Positions 25,306 to 41,336 of a stretch of DNA of 64,000 nucleotides are shown here, piece by piece. The stretch is from NCBI RefSeq assembly GCF_011745625.1, contig NW_027191454.1, positions 372,001 to 436,000 on the forward strand, written 5' to 3'. This stretch comes from Cladosporium halotolerans. Its lineage: Eukaryota. The translations under genes were made by a program, and so were the position numbers. The notes under the pieces are model-generated. The model saw nothing but the letters and a program-made list of their open reading frames with translations. It was not told the DNA's origin and did not search any database. Within the stretch, counting starts at the first letter, position 1, and the number at the start of each line of letters is the position of its first letter.

Positions 25306-28300
25306 TTAAATGCTCATGACAAGGACGTCGGAAACCAAACCATACTCCTGAGCTGGTGGCAAGGGGCCCAATGCAAGAGTCCCACTGCTCCTCAGCCGGC
25401 TCCAGTGAGGTCTGACCGCATTTCCAAGCGTAGTTGCTACGACTACCTGGACCTCGTTCTCACCGGCTTTGAGATACTTGGAGATGTCGGCGACGGCATG
25501 CGTTGGATCCAGAGGTGGAAGTTGATATCCGTTAACCCAGGCGCGGGCAGTGTTTATGATGGCACCAAAGTCGAGAAGCGCACCGTCGGCCTTGCCTTCC
25601 GCTGGTGGCCAAGAGAAAGTCGTGTTGTAGAAACCACGCCCTGAGACATTGAACAGGGAATCGGAAATGGCATTCCACGATTGGAGCTCTTGAAGCTGCC
25701 ATGTGCTGTTGGTCTTGAGCGATTGAGTCTGATCAGCGTAAATGTCCTCTGGAGCGCTCCAAGATTCGATGATGAGGGTCCAAGACGTCAAATTGAGTGC
25801 TGAGCTCGTGCCGTAATCAATCTCAGAGTGTTTTGGGGGTTGCAAAGTGTTGGCATATCCGCTTGGTGCCGACCAGCCACCGGACATTGAGCTTGCAGAT
25901 CCATAAGCCTTTGCACTCTCGTTGTGGTGGAAGCCAATAATTGCGCTCTGGTTACCCGCAAGCATCAATGGAATGGTGATAGAGTCGTTTCTCTGCTGAT
26001 ACTGATCGATAGACTTTGTCTCGCCAGTCCAGGCATCATAGAAGTATGGCACGCCAGTTGTCTCGAAGGTGACACTTCCATTTGAACCGCCGAGACCGAA
26101 TTCTTCGTCCCAAGCGTCGTTGTACACGAACACATAGGTCTTTGCTGCCTTCTGATCCTCACGCCAGTAGGTGTACCATATTCTGTCAGCGTCGACTTGA
26201 GTGCGTGGTGCGAGTCCCAGCGATTTGAGTGATGCCGACAGATTCTCGGCAGGCATCTCGTGAACATTGTCCAGCTCGGTAAGAGAAGCCAAGGCTGATT
26301 TGACGTAGGAGGATCCGCTCGCATTGTATCCGGACAGGTTGAAGGGCATTCCGCCGGAAATGATGATTGGCAAGCCTGAGTGCGCATATTCTGTGAGCTT
26401 CTGCACACCTCCGACCGTCAAAGTGTCGTTGCCACGGAGCACGAACGCCTTGAAAGCCTGACGAGCTGGCGCGAGCGCTTTATTTGATACGTATGCCTCT
26501 GGCTCGACGACAAGATTGTCAGGACTAAGGTATTCGTAGGACCATCCTTAAAAACTTAGCGGTGTGCTGCACGAATTACCTGGTCAATCCTACCGTCTTC
26601 TATCAAATCGTTCGGATTGTACTGCGAGGCCTTGTCGAAGAACTGAGACTTCTTCAACCAAAAGGCTAGATCGATTTTGGGGATTCCGCTTTGAGATATG
26701 TACTGAACGCGAGCGGTCCAGTTCATGAACTCATCGTAATACTCCCAGGTTGGCTGCCTCGGACCGTGCATATTTGAGAAGCGGTAAGCAAAGGTGGTGT
26801 AACCGGGCCAAGTCGTGTTAGGGTAAGAACCAGAGAAGGTATATCCGTGATATACCTACCGCCTTGTTAGCGTCGAAGACCTCACAATTAGGATGTAGAA
26901 ACTTACAAAGTTGTTGATCGAGCCGACGATTGAGCGTTTGACATCCCAAATTAGATCCGTCATAGTCTGACTGTACGGTTCATTACGCTGAGCGCCAAGC
27001 TCAGACGATATAACTCGCTTGCCTGCTAAGTTGGCTGGACCAGCAAACTGTCTATACGCGTCGATTACGTGATTGAAGCCAAGTGACTCGGTCTCAGGAC
27101 CGTTGACTGCCGGAATATTGGCGAGCATGTCCATGGGTAGATTGTACACCACTTGCGCGGAGTATTGAGACTCGAGTGCATCTCTAGTCCAGTTGACCAA
27201 GGTCTGGAGATAGATCTTGTTGAGCTCCGTGAGCTACGGACTGTCAGTGGATCTCATGGTAATTTCAGTAATGCCATGTACTCTTCACTCACCGTCTGTC
27301 TGTAATCATCGACGTGTGCTTGGCCTTGATCAACCTCGTCGGTCAAATACCAGTGCGGCGAAGCGAGAGGCGCATCCGATTGCGCGTTAGGATAATAGAT
27401 CAGCGGAAGGTACTTGCGAATGCTGTATCCGCGGGCCTTCTCAAAAGCCTCGACTAGTGCAGGTGTCCACCAGACCAAGATGCTGTTTCCAAATTCCATC
27501 GAATCTTCCCATCCATAGTTTCCCACTTCCCGAATCAGTTCCCTGGTGTTGTTGTAGTCAAGGAGGTAATTCTCCCAGAAATCGATGACAAGTTGCGCTC
27601 CCTTTACCGAGAAGTGATCATTGAATCTTGAGCCATTTTGCAAGAACGATGTGACCGGAGACTGCGGGACAGTGGTGTTGAGATACAACGGAGATTGTTG
27701 AGCTAGGCCGATGGTGTGGTTCTGATAGTATGCGAAGAGCTGATACTCAATGCCGTTTGCTGAGGAAGGGAAGCCGAGGCTGATGCTTCCATCTTCGCCG
27801 ACCTGATCGGTCACGTCGGTAAGGGTTTCAGCTGCCAAGGTGTAACGAGATCCACTGTAGTTTTGACTGAGGAAAGCAGGCGCTGCCTTGAGTTGAACAG
27901 GTGTGCTATCAACCACGAGCGCAGTTGATGCAGAGACAAGCTCTCCTGTACCCCAACCGGGAAGGACATCACTGTAAGAGCCACCCAGAGGAATCGAAAT
28001 ATTGAATGGTTGAAGATTCCACATGACACCGTCATCGTTCGGCTCTGCTGGAACGCCTGATCCTTGGTTAGGACCTAGGGCGAAGTCCATGATGAGGTTG
28101 TGGTCTTTCGTGGCCTGCAAAGCAACCTCGGTCAACTCCTCTGAGATGCATTAGCTGCTGTACACATCCCAAGATACTTGTCAGCCGAGACTTACTCCAC
28201 GCATCAGATGCCCACCCATACTTGGTCCAATCTACTGGTACTGGCCCGCCCTCCTGTACGACAGATGGATAGTTGCCATACAAGTAATAGCCCAGCAACT

Positions 28301-28579: not shown

Positions 28580-29119
28580 GGCCTGCTGAACAATAGAGAA
28601 TATGTAAAAATTTTCCGTCAAGTCGAAGTAAACAGGCCCTGAAGTCACTGATATACCCTATTCAATGACGCCTGTCCTAGGGTCGATTTGCAGGCATTGA
28701 ACCGAGCTGCGCAATACATGCTTTCTCCGCCTTGATGTCAACAGGGTTGTGATGCGGGGAGGGAGACTATCAAACCAAACCCTACGCTATGCCAGGGACG
28801 CCTCAAGTTTGTTTGAAGGACTGACCCATTGTTGTACAAGATCGCCGCGCCCACACGAGGTTCTCCACAACCCGAAGTAGGGTCACTCGGACTCTCGGGT
28901 CAATGATGTCGGAAGATGGTTTTGCCTAGCCCATACTGTAACTTCGTTGAAGTGGGGGACTTGACCGAGTGGAATAATTGGATGTTACCCGCGTTTATGT
29001 GGACGCAGCAAAAGAAGTAATTTGCTGATGAATACATTAGATTGGGTTGCCGATTGATTGAGCCGGACTGAAAATGTTGTTAAGCTATATAATTGTCGGT
29101 TTTTCTCCCCATGCATTGA

Positions 29120-29139
29120 GACCCATCACGTGATGGGTC
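29120..29139. promoter_or_regulatory. perfect 20-bp palindrome GACCCATCACGTGATGGGTC with a CACGTG core
   Basis: Self-complementary; ends 3 nt before the tRNA-Ser 5' end. TATATAA lies at 29086-29092. Function is inferred only. Confidence 0.5.
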
Positions 29140-29142
29140 ACA

Positions 29143-29333
29143 GGCACTTTGGGTAAGCTTGCATCAAGCCGCCAAAATGTCACAACAGCGATTAACAATT
29201 TCTCCAGCGGAGTGGTTAACGCGCTGCCCTGCTAAGGCAGTTCCGTAAGTGGTGCCTCAGACATCAGTTGTCAACTTGCACGTCCTAACAGTTCTCCAGT
29301 TCGGGAGCGTGTGTTCGAATCACACAGGTGTCG
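29143..29333 (+). tRNA. tRNA-Ser(GCT) split by two spliceosomal-type introns; exons 29143-29152, 29208-29244, 29300-29333
   Basis: Spliced 81-mer: GGCACTT-TG-GCG-GAGTGGTTAA-CGC-G-CTGCC-CTGCTAA-GGCAG-T-TCC-TTCG-GGA-GC-GTGTG-TTCGAAT-CACAC-AGGTGTC-G. All stems pair, with a long variable arm and G73 as expected for Ser. T-tracts follow downstream. Confidence 0.9.
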
Positions 29334-29895
29334 AGACCTTACTTTTTCTATCCCTTTTTTTGCTTTGCTCTTCGACATGTTCCAAGTCAGTGATTGAACC
29401 TCGATCGTGATCAAATACGTCTTTAGCTTCTTCTGAGTAGACGTTTTTGCGTTGCTCTGAGATGGAACCACAAAGCTGGCTTGTCCTGAAGTTCGTGATT
29501 GCACCACAAGAAAGACTTGCACCCTGAGATTGCCTTATAGTAATTGTCTTTACTACAATTGGAAAACTAAGACACGGCCAGAACGTGCTTTCCAGCGTCT
29601 TGGGAGGCCATCGATCTCCTTATGTGGTCTTGTCACACATAGGAGTACGGCAGGCGATGCTACGAAATTTCGATGCGAGGAAACAACGGCAGATTGAGAC
29701 TGTATACGCACAGTGGTGCGATCAGGTAAGAATATCGAAATACGGCTAGAGATCGAATGAGAACGCAGAGAGAAGAAGAGAGAAGTAATTGCTCTGCCAT
29801 ATGCAGGCGTATTTTTCAACGGGTATCTGTTTGGGAAGCCGCCCGCCGCGGTCAGCTATCTATATCGTCACGCATGCCAGAACAAGGAAGACACT

Positions 29896-31684
29896 TCAGC
29901 TGGTCTTCGGTGCCTCAGCAGCGGCCTGGTCGAGGCTCATCTCGTTCAGGCCAGCGGTAATGGACGCGCTGGCGCCAGCTTTTCCAATCCTCTGCTTCAC
30001 CTCTTGCTCAAGGTTCGCCAGCTCGACCATCACGCCCTCCTTTTCAGGGTGACCCTCGGGCAGACCCATCTCCTTGATCTTGCACTTGCCGGCATTGAGC
30101 TCCTCGTCGCCGAGAATGACGGCAAATGGGACGCCGTTGACTTCTGCGGCCTTGAATTGCTGAGGAAGCTTGGGCTTGACTTTCCAGCTGAACTCGGCCT
30201 TGATACCTGCGTCCCAAAGCTTTCGAGCGACCTCCATGCGCTGAGTGAGAAGACCGTCGAAGCCCTTGCCGCCAAAGGCCATGACGTAGACATCAACCTC
30301 GTTGCTCCTGATGGACGCAGCGGCGGCATCAGCTGCGAGACGCTGCTTGGTAATGCTGAAGATTCTTTCCACACCGAACGAGACACCAACACAGGGCACC
30401 TGCTGCTTGCCGCTGAACATGCCAACGAGGTTGTCGTAACGGCCACCAGCAGCCACGGAGCCGACACCAACACTAGGGTCGTTAGACCTGTCTTCCTCGC
30501 CATCAGCAGGCTTTCCGGGCTTCGAGTCCTTCTTGCCCGCCTGCTGTAGCTTCTGACCTTCGCTAGTCTGTGGTGCCGAGCCCTCGGTGACAATCTCGTA
30601 GATGACGCCGGTGTAGTAATCAAGGCCTCTGGCCAACGACATGTCGAAGGAAACACGGTCGAGAACTTGGAAAGCTTCCAGGTAGCCGAAGAGGAGAGCA
30701 GCATCCTCGAGTCCCTGCTTCGCCGATGCATTCGCGACAAGCTTCTCGTCCGCACGCAGTTTCTCCAGAAGGTCCCTGCCTCCCTTGAGCACCACGTACT
30801 CTCCTATCCGGTCTGCGACCTCGCCCTCCAATCCCTTCTCTTCAGTCATCTCTCGACGGACCTCCTCCCATGGTGACTTGTCCAGCTTGTCCACAGCCGA
30901 GCTGATTGTTCTGATCTTGTCCGCGGGAACACCGCACACCTCGAAGATACCGTCCAGAATCTTGCGGTGGTTGAGCTTGATTGTGTACCTTCCCTTCCAT
31001 CCGAGCGCCTCGAAAATCTCGCAGGTAATCCTCATGATCTCAGCATCGGGAAGCATAGAGTCGTAGGTGCCAGCAATGTCGAAGTCGCACTGGTAAAATT
31101 CGCGCATGCGACCCTTGGTCATTGCAGGCTGATCTCTGCGGTAGACCTTGGCGATGTGGTAGCGTTTGATGCTCTGGACATTGGAGTTCATGGCGAGCCA
31201 ACGAGCAAAGGGGACAGTGAGGTCGTATCGGAGGGAGCAGAGCTCGCCGCCTTGGTCGGCAAGGTCGTAGATGAGCTTGCTGTCCTCGCCATATTTGCCA
31301 GCAAGGATTTCCTTTAGCTCAAATACAGGTCTACAGGGTTGTGTCAGCAAGATGTCCCAGGTGCATATTGTCTGGGTCATTAACCAACGTGTCAATGGTA
31401 ACACCACCGTGGCGCTTAAAGACTTCGGTGATGGTGCTGAAGATCTTCTCGCGAATGACCATGTCCTTGCCATCCCAGTCCTTGGTTCCCTTGGGCACCT
31501 TCAGGACGTAGCCGCCGCCCTTGCCATCCTTGTCCTTGCCCATGTCTTCTTCTGTTTCCGCGAATGTGTGGCAGTGTTTGGATTGGTAGTGTGAAAACGG
31601 CGAACGTCTTACTAGAAGAGATCGTGAGAATTCAAATGCTGAAACAGAATGAAAAGGGCGCGGGAAGGAAGAGAGTCGGCGCAT
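29896..31684 (-). CDS. HTS1: histidyl-tRNA synthetase; intron 31388-31331; upstream ATG 31684 (mitochondrial form), downstream ATG 31543 (cytosolic form)
   Basis: [57 protein letters not shown] and [13 protein letters not shown]. Confidence 0.97.
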
Positions 31685-40192: not shown

Positions 40193-41336
40193 ATGGCTCA
40201 GTCCGTCCTTTCCCGCAAGACCGGTGTCATCGTCGGTGACGATGTCCGCGCCCTCTTCAAGTACGCCCAGGAGAAGAAGTTCGCCATCCCCGCCATCAAC
40301 GTGACTTCCTCCTCCACCGTCGTTGCGTCTCTCGAGGCTGCCCGCGACGCCAAGTCCCCCATCATTCTCCAGCTCTCCAACGGCGGTGCCGCCTACTTCG
40401 CCGGTAAGGGTGTGCCCAACAAGAACCAGGAGGCCTCCATCGCTGGTGCCATTGCCGCCGCCCACTACATCCGTGGTGTCGCCCCGGCCTACGGCATCCC
40501 CGTCGTCCTCCACACCGACCACTGCGCCAAGAAGCTCCTCCCCTGGTACGACGGCATGATGGACGCCGACGAGGCCTACTTCAAGGTCCACGGCGAGCCC
40601 CTCTTCTCCTCCCACATGATCGACCTGTCTGAGGAGGAGGTCGACTACAACATCCAGACCACCGCCGCCTACCTCAAGCGCGCCGCTCCCATGAAGCAGT
40701 GGGTCGAGATGGAGATCGGCATCACCGGTGGCGAGGAGGACGGCGTCGACAACGAGTCCGTCGACAACAACTCCCTCTACACCCAGCCTGAGGACATCCA
40801 CAACATCTACAAGGCTCTCATGGCCGTCTCCCCCTACTTCTCCATCGCCGCCGGCTTCGGCAACGTCCACGGCGTCTACAAGCCCGGCAACGTCAAGCTG
40901 CGCCCCGAGCTTCTCCTCAAGCACCAGCAGTACGTGCAGGAGAAGGAGGGCCTTAAGGACGAGAAGCCCGTTGCCCTCGTCTTCCACGGTGGCTCCGGCT
41001 CCTCCAAGAAGGAGTACCTCGACGCCATCTCCTACGGTGTCGTCAAGGTCAACGTCGACACCGACATGCAGTTCGCCTACACCGAGGGTATCCGCGACTA
41101 CATGATCAAGAACAAGGACTACGTCTCCAGCCAGGTCGGCAACCCCGAGGGCGCTGACAAGCCCAACAAGAAGTATGTTTTTACACTCTGCTTCCTTCAT
41201 ATAGACCAAATACTAACAAGACTTCTCAACCAGGTTCTACGACCCCCGTGTCTGGGTCCGCGAGGGCGAGAAGACCATGACCAAGCGCGTCGCCGAGGCT
41301 CTTGCCGACTTCAACTGCGTCAACCAGCTCTCTTAA
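40193..41336 (+). CDS. FBA1: fructose-bisphosphate aldolase class II; intron 41173-41233
   Basis: FAIPAINVTSSST, HTDHCAKKLLPW, GNVHGVY, LVFHGGSGS and PNKKFYDPRVWVREGE; very strong C-ending codon bias. Confidence 0.98.

Follow-up and report, generated by a model that had tools for sequence, protein, structure and literature searches.

Can a nuclear transfer RNA (tRNA) gene be interrupted by spliceosomal introns? This question is raised by a tRNA-Ser(GCU) gene on the + strand of contig NW_027191454.1 of Cladosporium halotolerans, within positions 372,001 to 436,000. This whole stretch of 64 kb is called the window here, and all coordinates are positions in it. A preliminary description of the window had proposed that two GT-AG introns with branch points split the gene at unusual sites. 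The analysis presented here leads to the conclusion that the tRNA-Ser(GCU) gene is real and conserved. We further consider it likely that it is a functional nuclear gene interrupted by two U2-type GT-AG spliceosomal introns, with a precursor that RNA polymerase III (Pol III) produces. As the introns are similar to those of messenger RNA (mRNA) genes and as the split layout is kept in related fungi, the tRNA encoded at this locus probably needs the spliceosome for its maturation.

The tRNA-Ser(GCU) gene and its uninterrupted homologues

The gene consists of three exons and two introns (Table 1). Intron 1 interrupts the D stem after nucleotide 10 of the mature sequence, and intron 2, after nucleotide 47, separates the TTCG loop of the variable arm from the 5′ strand of the stem of this arm; both sites agree with those that had been given before. 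The anticodon GCT (29231-29233) lies inside exon 2. When the exons are joined in silico, ARAGORN calls the resulting 81 bases as tRNA-Ser(gct), in agreement with the serine cloverleaf that the preliminary description had derived by cutting at GT and AG. The joined product exhibits the features of a class II tRNA-Ser(GCU), namely a cloverleaf with a long variable arm, the anticodon GCU and G73. The boundary of intron 1 can slide by one base (G/G) without any change in the product; the boundary of intron 2 is unambiguous.

A scan of metagenome contigs with a pattern of exon 2 (D arm and anticodon loop) yielded at least 119 stretches. Among the matches listed, 112 distinct ones were counted by script: 84 are uninterrupted, 20 contain an ordinary intron at position 37/38, three (L009, L018 and L041) have the two-intron GT-AG layout and five are cut by a contig end. 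The joined product of the window is identical to the uninterrupted gene L057 at 80 of 81 positions and to the uninterrupted genes L005, L016 and L030 at 79 of 81, the two differences in the latter case being a compensatory change of the 27-43 pair. Exon 1 is contiguous with exon 2 in the uninterrupted homologues. Because the joined product is nearly identical to uninterrupted genes, both junctions are placed as contiguous homologues require, and the exon-intron boundaries of the earlier proposal hold. In prokaryotic genome contigs the pattern of the intron-1 junction had no match. The ordinary introns found in 20 of the 112 listed homologues (e.g., L006, L022, L026 and L036) are about 13-25 nucleotides (nt) long, and the same tRNA is therefore interrupted by different types of introns across fungal lineages.

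Conservation of the split architecture

In L009 and L018 introns are present at both of the sites that are interrupted in the window. A contig end truncates intron 1 of L041 to its last 4 nt (ACAG), and intron 2 is present. The joined sequences of L009 and L018 are each called as a tRNA-Ser(gct) of 81 nt by ARAGORN. Exon 1 is identical at all 10 positions in every pair formed by the window, L009 and L018, and exon 2 at all 37 positions in every pair that can be formed when L041 is included. Exon 3 is identical at 28-34 of 34 positions, with differences only in three T-stem pairs that are changed on both sides. For intron 1 the identity is 28-36 of 55 positions, and the observed scores were reached by 330 and 430 of 1000 shuffles. 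Intron 2 of the window is identical to that of the three metagenome loci at 33-35 of 55 positions, with 26, 199 and 26 of 1000 shuffles reaching the score. The flanks of these loci are about 50-60% identical; a comparison of the window flanks with the metagenome loci revealed no similarity beyond the tRNA gene and no synteny.

In the alignment of the four loci (A1), in which the cloverleaf was counted across the introns, 84 of 84 cells are paired as compared to 37-45% with slid partners, and all 23 cloverleaf pairs are formed in all four sequences. Such a pattern marks a gene whose joined RNA is under selection and whose introns are selected only for their splice signals. The preliminary description had called for an alignment of orthologous loci and had named decaying exons as an outcome that would speak against it. 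Such decay is contradicted by the exons, which are invariant or changed in a compensatory manner, with the splice signals kept and the intron bodies near shuffle level.

Close relatives and further gene copies

Contigs of four public runs (X20, X1, X3 and X2) were compared with the window over 28900-29700. X20 exhibits no differences and may be the source sample of the window, so that it is not independent, and X2 is a mixture of sequences. The contigs of X1 are about 94-97% alike to the window; they keep intron 1 and, of intron 2, at least 29245-29275 and 29293-29299. All listed differences of X1 within the gene (29159, 29183, 29200 and 29268) are intronic, and as five of the 22 differences of the first contig are unlisted, an exon difference might be among these. 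A contig of 153 nt from X3 has four differences in 29127-29244, one in the leader (29140) and three in intron 1 (29159, 29183 and 29200), and none in 29300-29334. Across intron 2, a contig of X2 carries eight listed substitutions and one insertion in 29264-29293, along with one more difference that is unlisted. None of the listed changes is located inside GTAAGT, CTAAC or CAG.

Contigs from X3 and X2 skip exactly 29245-29299 (GT..AG, with a joint without slack) and keep intron 1. The variants of X3 are shared with X1, in which intron 2 is present. The skip in X3 is either a presence/absence polymorphism of the DNA among near-identical relatives or a partly spliced RNA, and either reading fits, and thereby supports, an exact excision at these boundaries. 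In X20, a run of the same species, a contig of 28.9 kb contains a second copy of the gene, which matches 29204-29238, continues with six other letters and then matches 29300-29333. This copy is without intron 2 and its variable arm is different. Upstream of 29204 it has unrelated sequence that ends in CTGAC and then CCAG, which is a different intron at the same site 1. The same arrangement, with the motif CTAAC, is found in a contig of X2. Other contigs of X2 have an A-rich 5′ flank, different from that of the window, followed by exon 1 directly joined to exon 2, and thus represent uninterrupted copies from other loci or other organisms. In X20, the summed depth over the 3′ exon (29305-29334) is about 4.7 times that of a single copy, and at least two further 3′ flanks with T-runs were found, and the genome thus contains a small family of genes with this T arm and acceptor strand.

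These data bear on two ways in which the gene could be explained away. It is hardly conceivable that the structure is an assembly artefact or a chance resemblance, as it recurs in the independent runs X1 and X2 (in X3 for intron 1 only) and in three metagenome contigs, and as every cloverleaf pair is formed in all sequences. The gene could also be a non-functional relic, i.e., a redundant copy with intron-like insertions, the tRNA being supplied by intact copies elsewhere. This idea finds some support in the near-identical uninterrupted genes of other fungi and of the mixed run X2. Yet, across loci with randomised introns and flanks the exons either do not vary or change only in a compensatory manner, and the splice signals as well as the promoter-like and terminator-like elements are retained. 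In addition, only two contigs of X20 contain exon 2, and both have an intron at site 1, with contigs showing presence, not absence. A relic is therefore very improbable.

Splice signals and mode of intron removal

Intron 1 measures 53 nt in L009 (GTAAGC..CTAAT..CAG) and 54 nt in L018 (GTAGGT..CTGAC..CAG), and intron 2 measures 51 nt in each of L009, L018 and L041, with the 5′ site GTAAGT (L009 and L018) or GTAAGG (L041), the branch region CCTAAC or CCTTAC and the 3′ end TAG or CAG. Together with the two introns of the window (GTAAGC and GTAAGT), all seven have a GURAGU-like 5′ site of the form GT[AG][AG]G[CTG]. A branch motif Y-T-N-A-Y is likewise present in seven of seven introns (TTAAC, CTAAC, CTAAT, CTAAC, CTGAC, CTTAC and CTAAC), with its A at 10-12 nt from the 3′ end, and so is a 3′ site YAG, which is CAG in six introns and TAG in one. 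The introns in the partial contigs of the paralogues also end in CAG. Apart from these signals, the tRNA introns, of 51-55 nt, have bodies with an identity near shuffle level. The introns of the neighbouring hydrolase-like gene are 51, 55 and 59 nt long, start with GTAAGT or GTGAGT, contain CTAAT, CTGAC or CTAAC and exhibit a branch-to-end distance of 10-11 nt, a distance that amounts to 10-15 nt among plausible local mRNA introns. As length, 5′ site, branch motif and branch distance agree, the introns of the tRNA gene match the local mRNA introns.

It is conceivable, but quite improbable, that the gene is functional and that its introns are removed by a protein-only pathway, i.e., by the tRNA splicing endonuclease or another nuclease together with a ligase, the GT..AG and branch motifs being incidental. 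All nuclear tRNA introns described so far use the endonuclease pathway (PMC10275265; PMC12530127; these and all other articles given by their PMC number are cited from excerpts), and atypical introns in the D and T arms occur in Cyanidioschyzon merolae (PMC9602550; PMC3978253). The features that are conserved in seven of seven introns are, however, the spliceosomal 5′ site, the branch motif and YAG. A crude script with simplified geometry, applied at 16 offsets, detected no bulge-flanked central helix of 4 bp (bulge-helix-bulge) in any of the six complete introns. The intron bodies are not conserved and the predicted minimum-energy folds of the precursors differ among the loci, which is a weak test. 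The introns are located after nucleotides 10 and 47 and not at position 37/38, where introns of the endonuclease type lie. In eukaryotes the endonuclease uses the folded mature domain as its point of measurement. As the D stem and the variable arm are both split, this domain presumably cannot form before splicing. We therefore favour the spliceosome. In their sequence, the two introns show all the properties of spliceosomal introns and none that typify tRNA introns, and their removal by the spliceosome is very probable.

Table 1. Coordinates of the tRNA-Ser(GCU) gene, its predicted signals and neighbouring features in the window.
Feature	Position	Strand	Details
Exon 1	29143-29152	+	10 nt; acceptor 5′ strand, U8, G9, G10
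Intron 1	29153-29207	+	55 nt; 5′ site GTAAGC and 3′ CAG; TTAAC as branch motif (29192-29196) with its A 12 nt from the 3′ end
Exon 2	29208-29244	+	37 nt; remaining D arm, anticodon arm, 5′ strand of variable-arm stem
Intron 2	29245-29299	+	55 nt; 5′ site GTAAGT and 3′ CAG; CTAAC as branch motif (29285-29289) with its A 11 nt from the 3′ end
Exon 3	29300-29333	+	34 nt; variable-arm loop and 3′ strand, T arm, acceptor 3′ strand, G73
TATA-like element (TATATAA)	29086-29092	+	57-51 nt upstream of mature 5′ end; probable TFIIIB/TBP site
A-box-like element (CAGCGGAGTGG)	29205-29215	+	last 3 nt of intron 1 and start of exon 2
B box	29312-29322	+	in T arm of exon 3; intact
T5 run and T7 run	29343-29347 and 29355-29361	+	10-28 nt after 3′ end; probable Pol III terminator
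Perfect 20-nt palindrome, CACGTG core	29120-29139		matches its own opposite strand; ends 3 nt before exon 1
Glycoside-hydrolase-like gene	5′ end near 28657	minus	
Introns of the hydrolase-like gene	26856-26906, 27234-27292, 28141-28195	minus	GT-AG; join its open reading frames
Histidyl-tRNA synthetase gene	stop codon at 29896	minus	

Detection by standard tRNA finders

On the genomic sequence of the locus ARAGORN called no tRNA, with or without its intron mode. The Rfam tRNA model gave a partial match at 29206-29325 (model positions 9-63) with 31.2 bits against a gathering score of 29, in which intron 2 is handled as an insertion and exon 1 is lost. Standard finders thus miss or truncate this gene, as the preliminary description had expected in part when it proposed that they would miss it. 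This suggests that fungal tRNA complements may be under-counted, or mis-called as being without an isoacceptor. The only ARAGORN call in the whole window is a tRNA-Val(aac) at 2876-2976 with a canonical intron of 28 nt at position 37/38, a gene that had already been noticed at 2876. Ordinary tRNA introns are thus in use in this genome as well. The tRNA-Val(AAC) gene is followed by a T5 and a T6 run. An Rfam scan at E-values up to 5 gave no additional tRNA-like match anywhere in the window. A weak match to the Pseudomonas small RNA P10 at 40819-40866 (21.7 bits against a gathering score of 37, E-value of 0.74) is almost certainly due to chance.

As a control, all GT..AG segments in 29100-29380 were removed singly or in pairs and ARAGORN was rerun, which resulted in tRNA calls for 107 of 1073 constructs, some of them with only intron 2 removed. 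Since ARAGORN is too permissive to discriminate, this control was discarded and the comparison with uninterrupted homologues was used instead. With intron 2 alone removed, a serine tRNA is still called at 29196-29334, for which the end of intron 1 supplies a poor acceptor strand; this reading is ruled out by the conservation of exon 1 in L009 and L018.

Transcription signals

Relative to exon 1, the TATA-like element of the window has counterparts at -48 in L009 and at -43 in L018. Uninterrupted homologues also have a TATA-like element at -45 to -53 (e.g., -52 in L057 and -53 in L028), and in total one was found within 80 nt upstream in 10 of 31. Runs of four to five T follow the 3′ end by about 7-15 nt in L009, L018 and L041; they are also present downstream of uninterrupted homologues, and the other 3′ flanks seen in the public runs carry T-runs as well. 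As the TATA-like element and the T-runs match those of uninterrupted homologues, transcription by Pol III is suggested. The stretch 29205-29215, which we take to resemble the A-box consensus, is completed by the CAG of intron 1, and CAG precedes exon 2 in all copies seen with intron 1. The alignment to the Rfam tRNA model starts inside this element, at 29206. The consensus matches taken together point to a Pol III that would start upstream of exon 1, as for intron-bearing U6 genes.

Removal by the spliceosome could also act on a precursor made by RNA polymerase II (Pol II) from the TATA element, similar to a small nuclear RNA (snRNA) or an mRNA, from which RNase P and RNase Z would excise the tRNA. 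Spliceosomal splicing is normally coupled to Pol II, the TATA element is at a distance that is compatible with either polymerase, and intron 1 sets the A-box-like element apart from the 5′ end, which fits poorly with a Pol III promoter of type 2. Nevertheless, we regard a Pol II precursor as unlikely. T-runs follow closely after the 3′ end in the window (from 10 nt onwards) as well as in the three metagenome loci (from 7-11 nt onwards), and the TATA position relative to exon 1 is that of ordinary tRNA genes, namely of the uninterrupted homologues. An intact B box is present, and an A-box-like element is recreated by the CAG of intron 1. Transcripts of Pol III can, moreover, be spliced, an example being U6 of fission yeast (PMC5855946).

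The palindrome in front of exon 1 could be a hairpin of the 5′ leader or a protein site, the latter perhaps of the bHLH type. X1 and X2 cover the palindrome, and their listed differences adjoin it (29117, 29119 and 29140), with 21 differences being unlisted. The X3 contig begins at 29127, inside the palindrome. A second contig of X2 is similar to the window exactly from 29120 onwards, as if the palindrome were part of a duplicated gene unit. The palindrome is absent from L009 and L018.

Proposed maturation pathway

From these features we infer the following pathway, in which every step at the RNA level, the polymerase and the order of processing are read from the sequence. Pol III, positioned by the TATA-like element, would start some 15-30 nt before exon 1, read through both introns and stop at the T5/T7 runs. 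With its D stem split by intron 1 and its variable arm by intron 2, the precursor, of roughly 220-240 nt, would be unable to fold into a cloverleaf. The U1 snRNA would pair with GUAAGC and GUAAGU, the branch-site machinery would recognise UUAAC and CUAAC 11-12 nt before each CAG, and two lariats of 55 nt would be removed. The joined body of 81 nt would fold only after splicing. RNase P, 3′ trimming, CCA addition and seryl-tRNA synthetase, which would recognise the long variable arm and G73, would then act as on any tRNA-Ser.

Several points weigh against a functional, Pol III-transcribed gene with spliceosomal introns. Splicing, lariats, mature tRNA and polymerase are all inferred from sequence. 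Intron 1 shifts the A-box-like element 55 bp further away from the TATA-like element, and we know of no demonstration that such a geometry works for TFIIIC and TFIIIB on tRNA genes; Pol III might also start inside intron 1. Neither intron contains a run of four T. This is, however, uninformative for Pol III, as such a run occurs in only two of 31 candidate local introns, a list that contains false positives. The branch motifs TTAAC of intron 1 in the window and CTTAC of intron 2 in L018 deviate from the commonest forms CTAAC and CTGAC. The canonical intron of the tRNA-Val gene also failed in the bulge-helix-bulge script (3/4), so that this script discriminates poorly. The three metagenome loci all come from one metagenome and may therefore be paralogues of one organism. 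Finally, an uninterrupted Ser(GCU) copy elsewhere in this genome is possible.

Genomic context and origin of the introns

The locus is situated in a spacer of 1.2 kb between the glycoside-hydrolase-like gene and the histidyl-tRNA synthetase gene. As both neighbours are on the minus strand, the tRNA gene is not an exon or intron of a protein gene on the same strand. The best named relatives of the synthetase are from Dothideomycetes, mostly Teratosphaeriaceae-like fungi, with 82-83% identity, and the host is accordingly a dothideomycete fungus.

The two introns of the window are of equal length and identical at 38 of 55 positions, a score that is reached by eight of 1000 interior shuffles. Their resemblance is found mostly in the region from the branch to the 3′ end, and one of them may be derived from the other. 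No second copy of either intron is present elsewhere in the window. Introner-like elements and recent intron gains have been described in Dothideomycetes (PMC4457414); in the excerpts of this paper the term tRNA has 0 occurrences. Reverse splicing is discussed as an intron origin for snRNAs and ribosomal RNA (rRNA) (PMC5855946). Candidate origins for the introns found here would, by analogy, be reverse splicing into an abundant RNA or an insertion of the introner type. Reverse splicing at the catalytic centre is not obviously applicable, since the tRNA is no component of the spliceosome.

It appears possible, although we hold this with some doubt, that the situation extends to a whole dothideomycete lineage, in which every tRNA-Ser(GCU) gene would be interrupted by spliceosomal introns, so that decoding of AGC and AGU codons would require the spliceosome to act on transcripts of Pol III. 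Reverse splicing or introner insertion would have brought the introns into an abundant tRNA, and their turnover would still be going on, as near-identical relatives differ in the presence of intron 2. If true, nuclear tRNA maturation would have a fourth route, and splicing capacity would be linked directly to translation.

Comparison with known systems

Spliceosomal introns in a tRNA gene are apparently unreported. A literature search, with subscription-only papers outside its scope, returned no report of them. Such introns are likewise not reported in the excerpts of the tRNA reviews PMC10275265 and PMC12530127, of the permuted-tRNA review PMC3978253 and of PMC5647799, PMC11782384, PMC11146597, PMC8476143 and PMC4457414 (intron evolution). 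The preliminary description had likewise known of no established case in tRNA, and the closest known case is that of the fungal U6 introns. In textbooks as well as in current reviews, spliceosomal introns and tRNA introns are treated as separate systems with separate machinery (PMC12530127; PMC10275265). A conserved tRNA gene that depends on the spliceosome would, if true, break this separation. The non-coding hosts of spliceosomal introns listed in the excerpts of PMC5855946 are U6, U2, U5, U1 and rRNA; tRNA is not among them and would join this short list. The gene would then also be a second, cleaner case of the spliceosome acting on a probable Pol III transcript. It would further bear on the origin of new introns, as a tRNA does not belong to the spliceosome and is not transcribed by Pol II.

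Like the canonical introns at position 37/38, those described here interrupt a nuclear tRNA gene and have to be removed before the tRNA can function. Unlike these, they are two in number and destroy the mature domain by their positions at 10/11 and in the variable arm; a GT..branch..YAG arrangement is conserved, and length and signals match those of the local mRNA introns. The tRNA introns of C. merolae and archaea (PMC3978253; PMC9602550) are similar in that there are several of them at positions outside the anticodon, including the D arm. However, they rely on a bulge-helix-bulge, which the crude test did not find at this locus, where spliceosomal features are conserved instead. Introner-like elements share with the introns of the window the fungal class, the short spliceosomal type and a varying presence, as seen for intron 2. 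In their case, however, many near-identical copies reside in protein-coding genes, whereas here even a second copy is missing from the window. Introns of the spliceosomal type are also known from rRNA genes of ascomycetes (Bhattacharya et al., 2000, cited in PMC5855946), which, like the gene described here, encode an abundant and structured RNA that is not made by Pol II, but which differ in their host RNA and in their transcription by RNA polymerase I.

The most similar system is that of the fungal U6 snRNA genes with their mRNA-type introns (Tani and Ohshima, 1989, 1991; Canzler et al., 2016, cited in PMC5855946). In both cases the RNA is short, structured and presumably a Pol III transcript, and its gene contains one to several introns that have canonical 5′, branch and 3′ sites and are otherwise unconserved, with some introns shared by descent and others specific to a lineage, and the gene is preceded by a TATA element and followed by a T-run terminator. 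Unlike U6, the host RNA at this locus is not a component of the spliceosome but a tRNA, the product of which must still pass through the whole tRNA maturation pathway.

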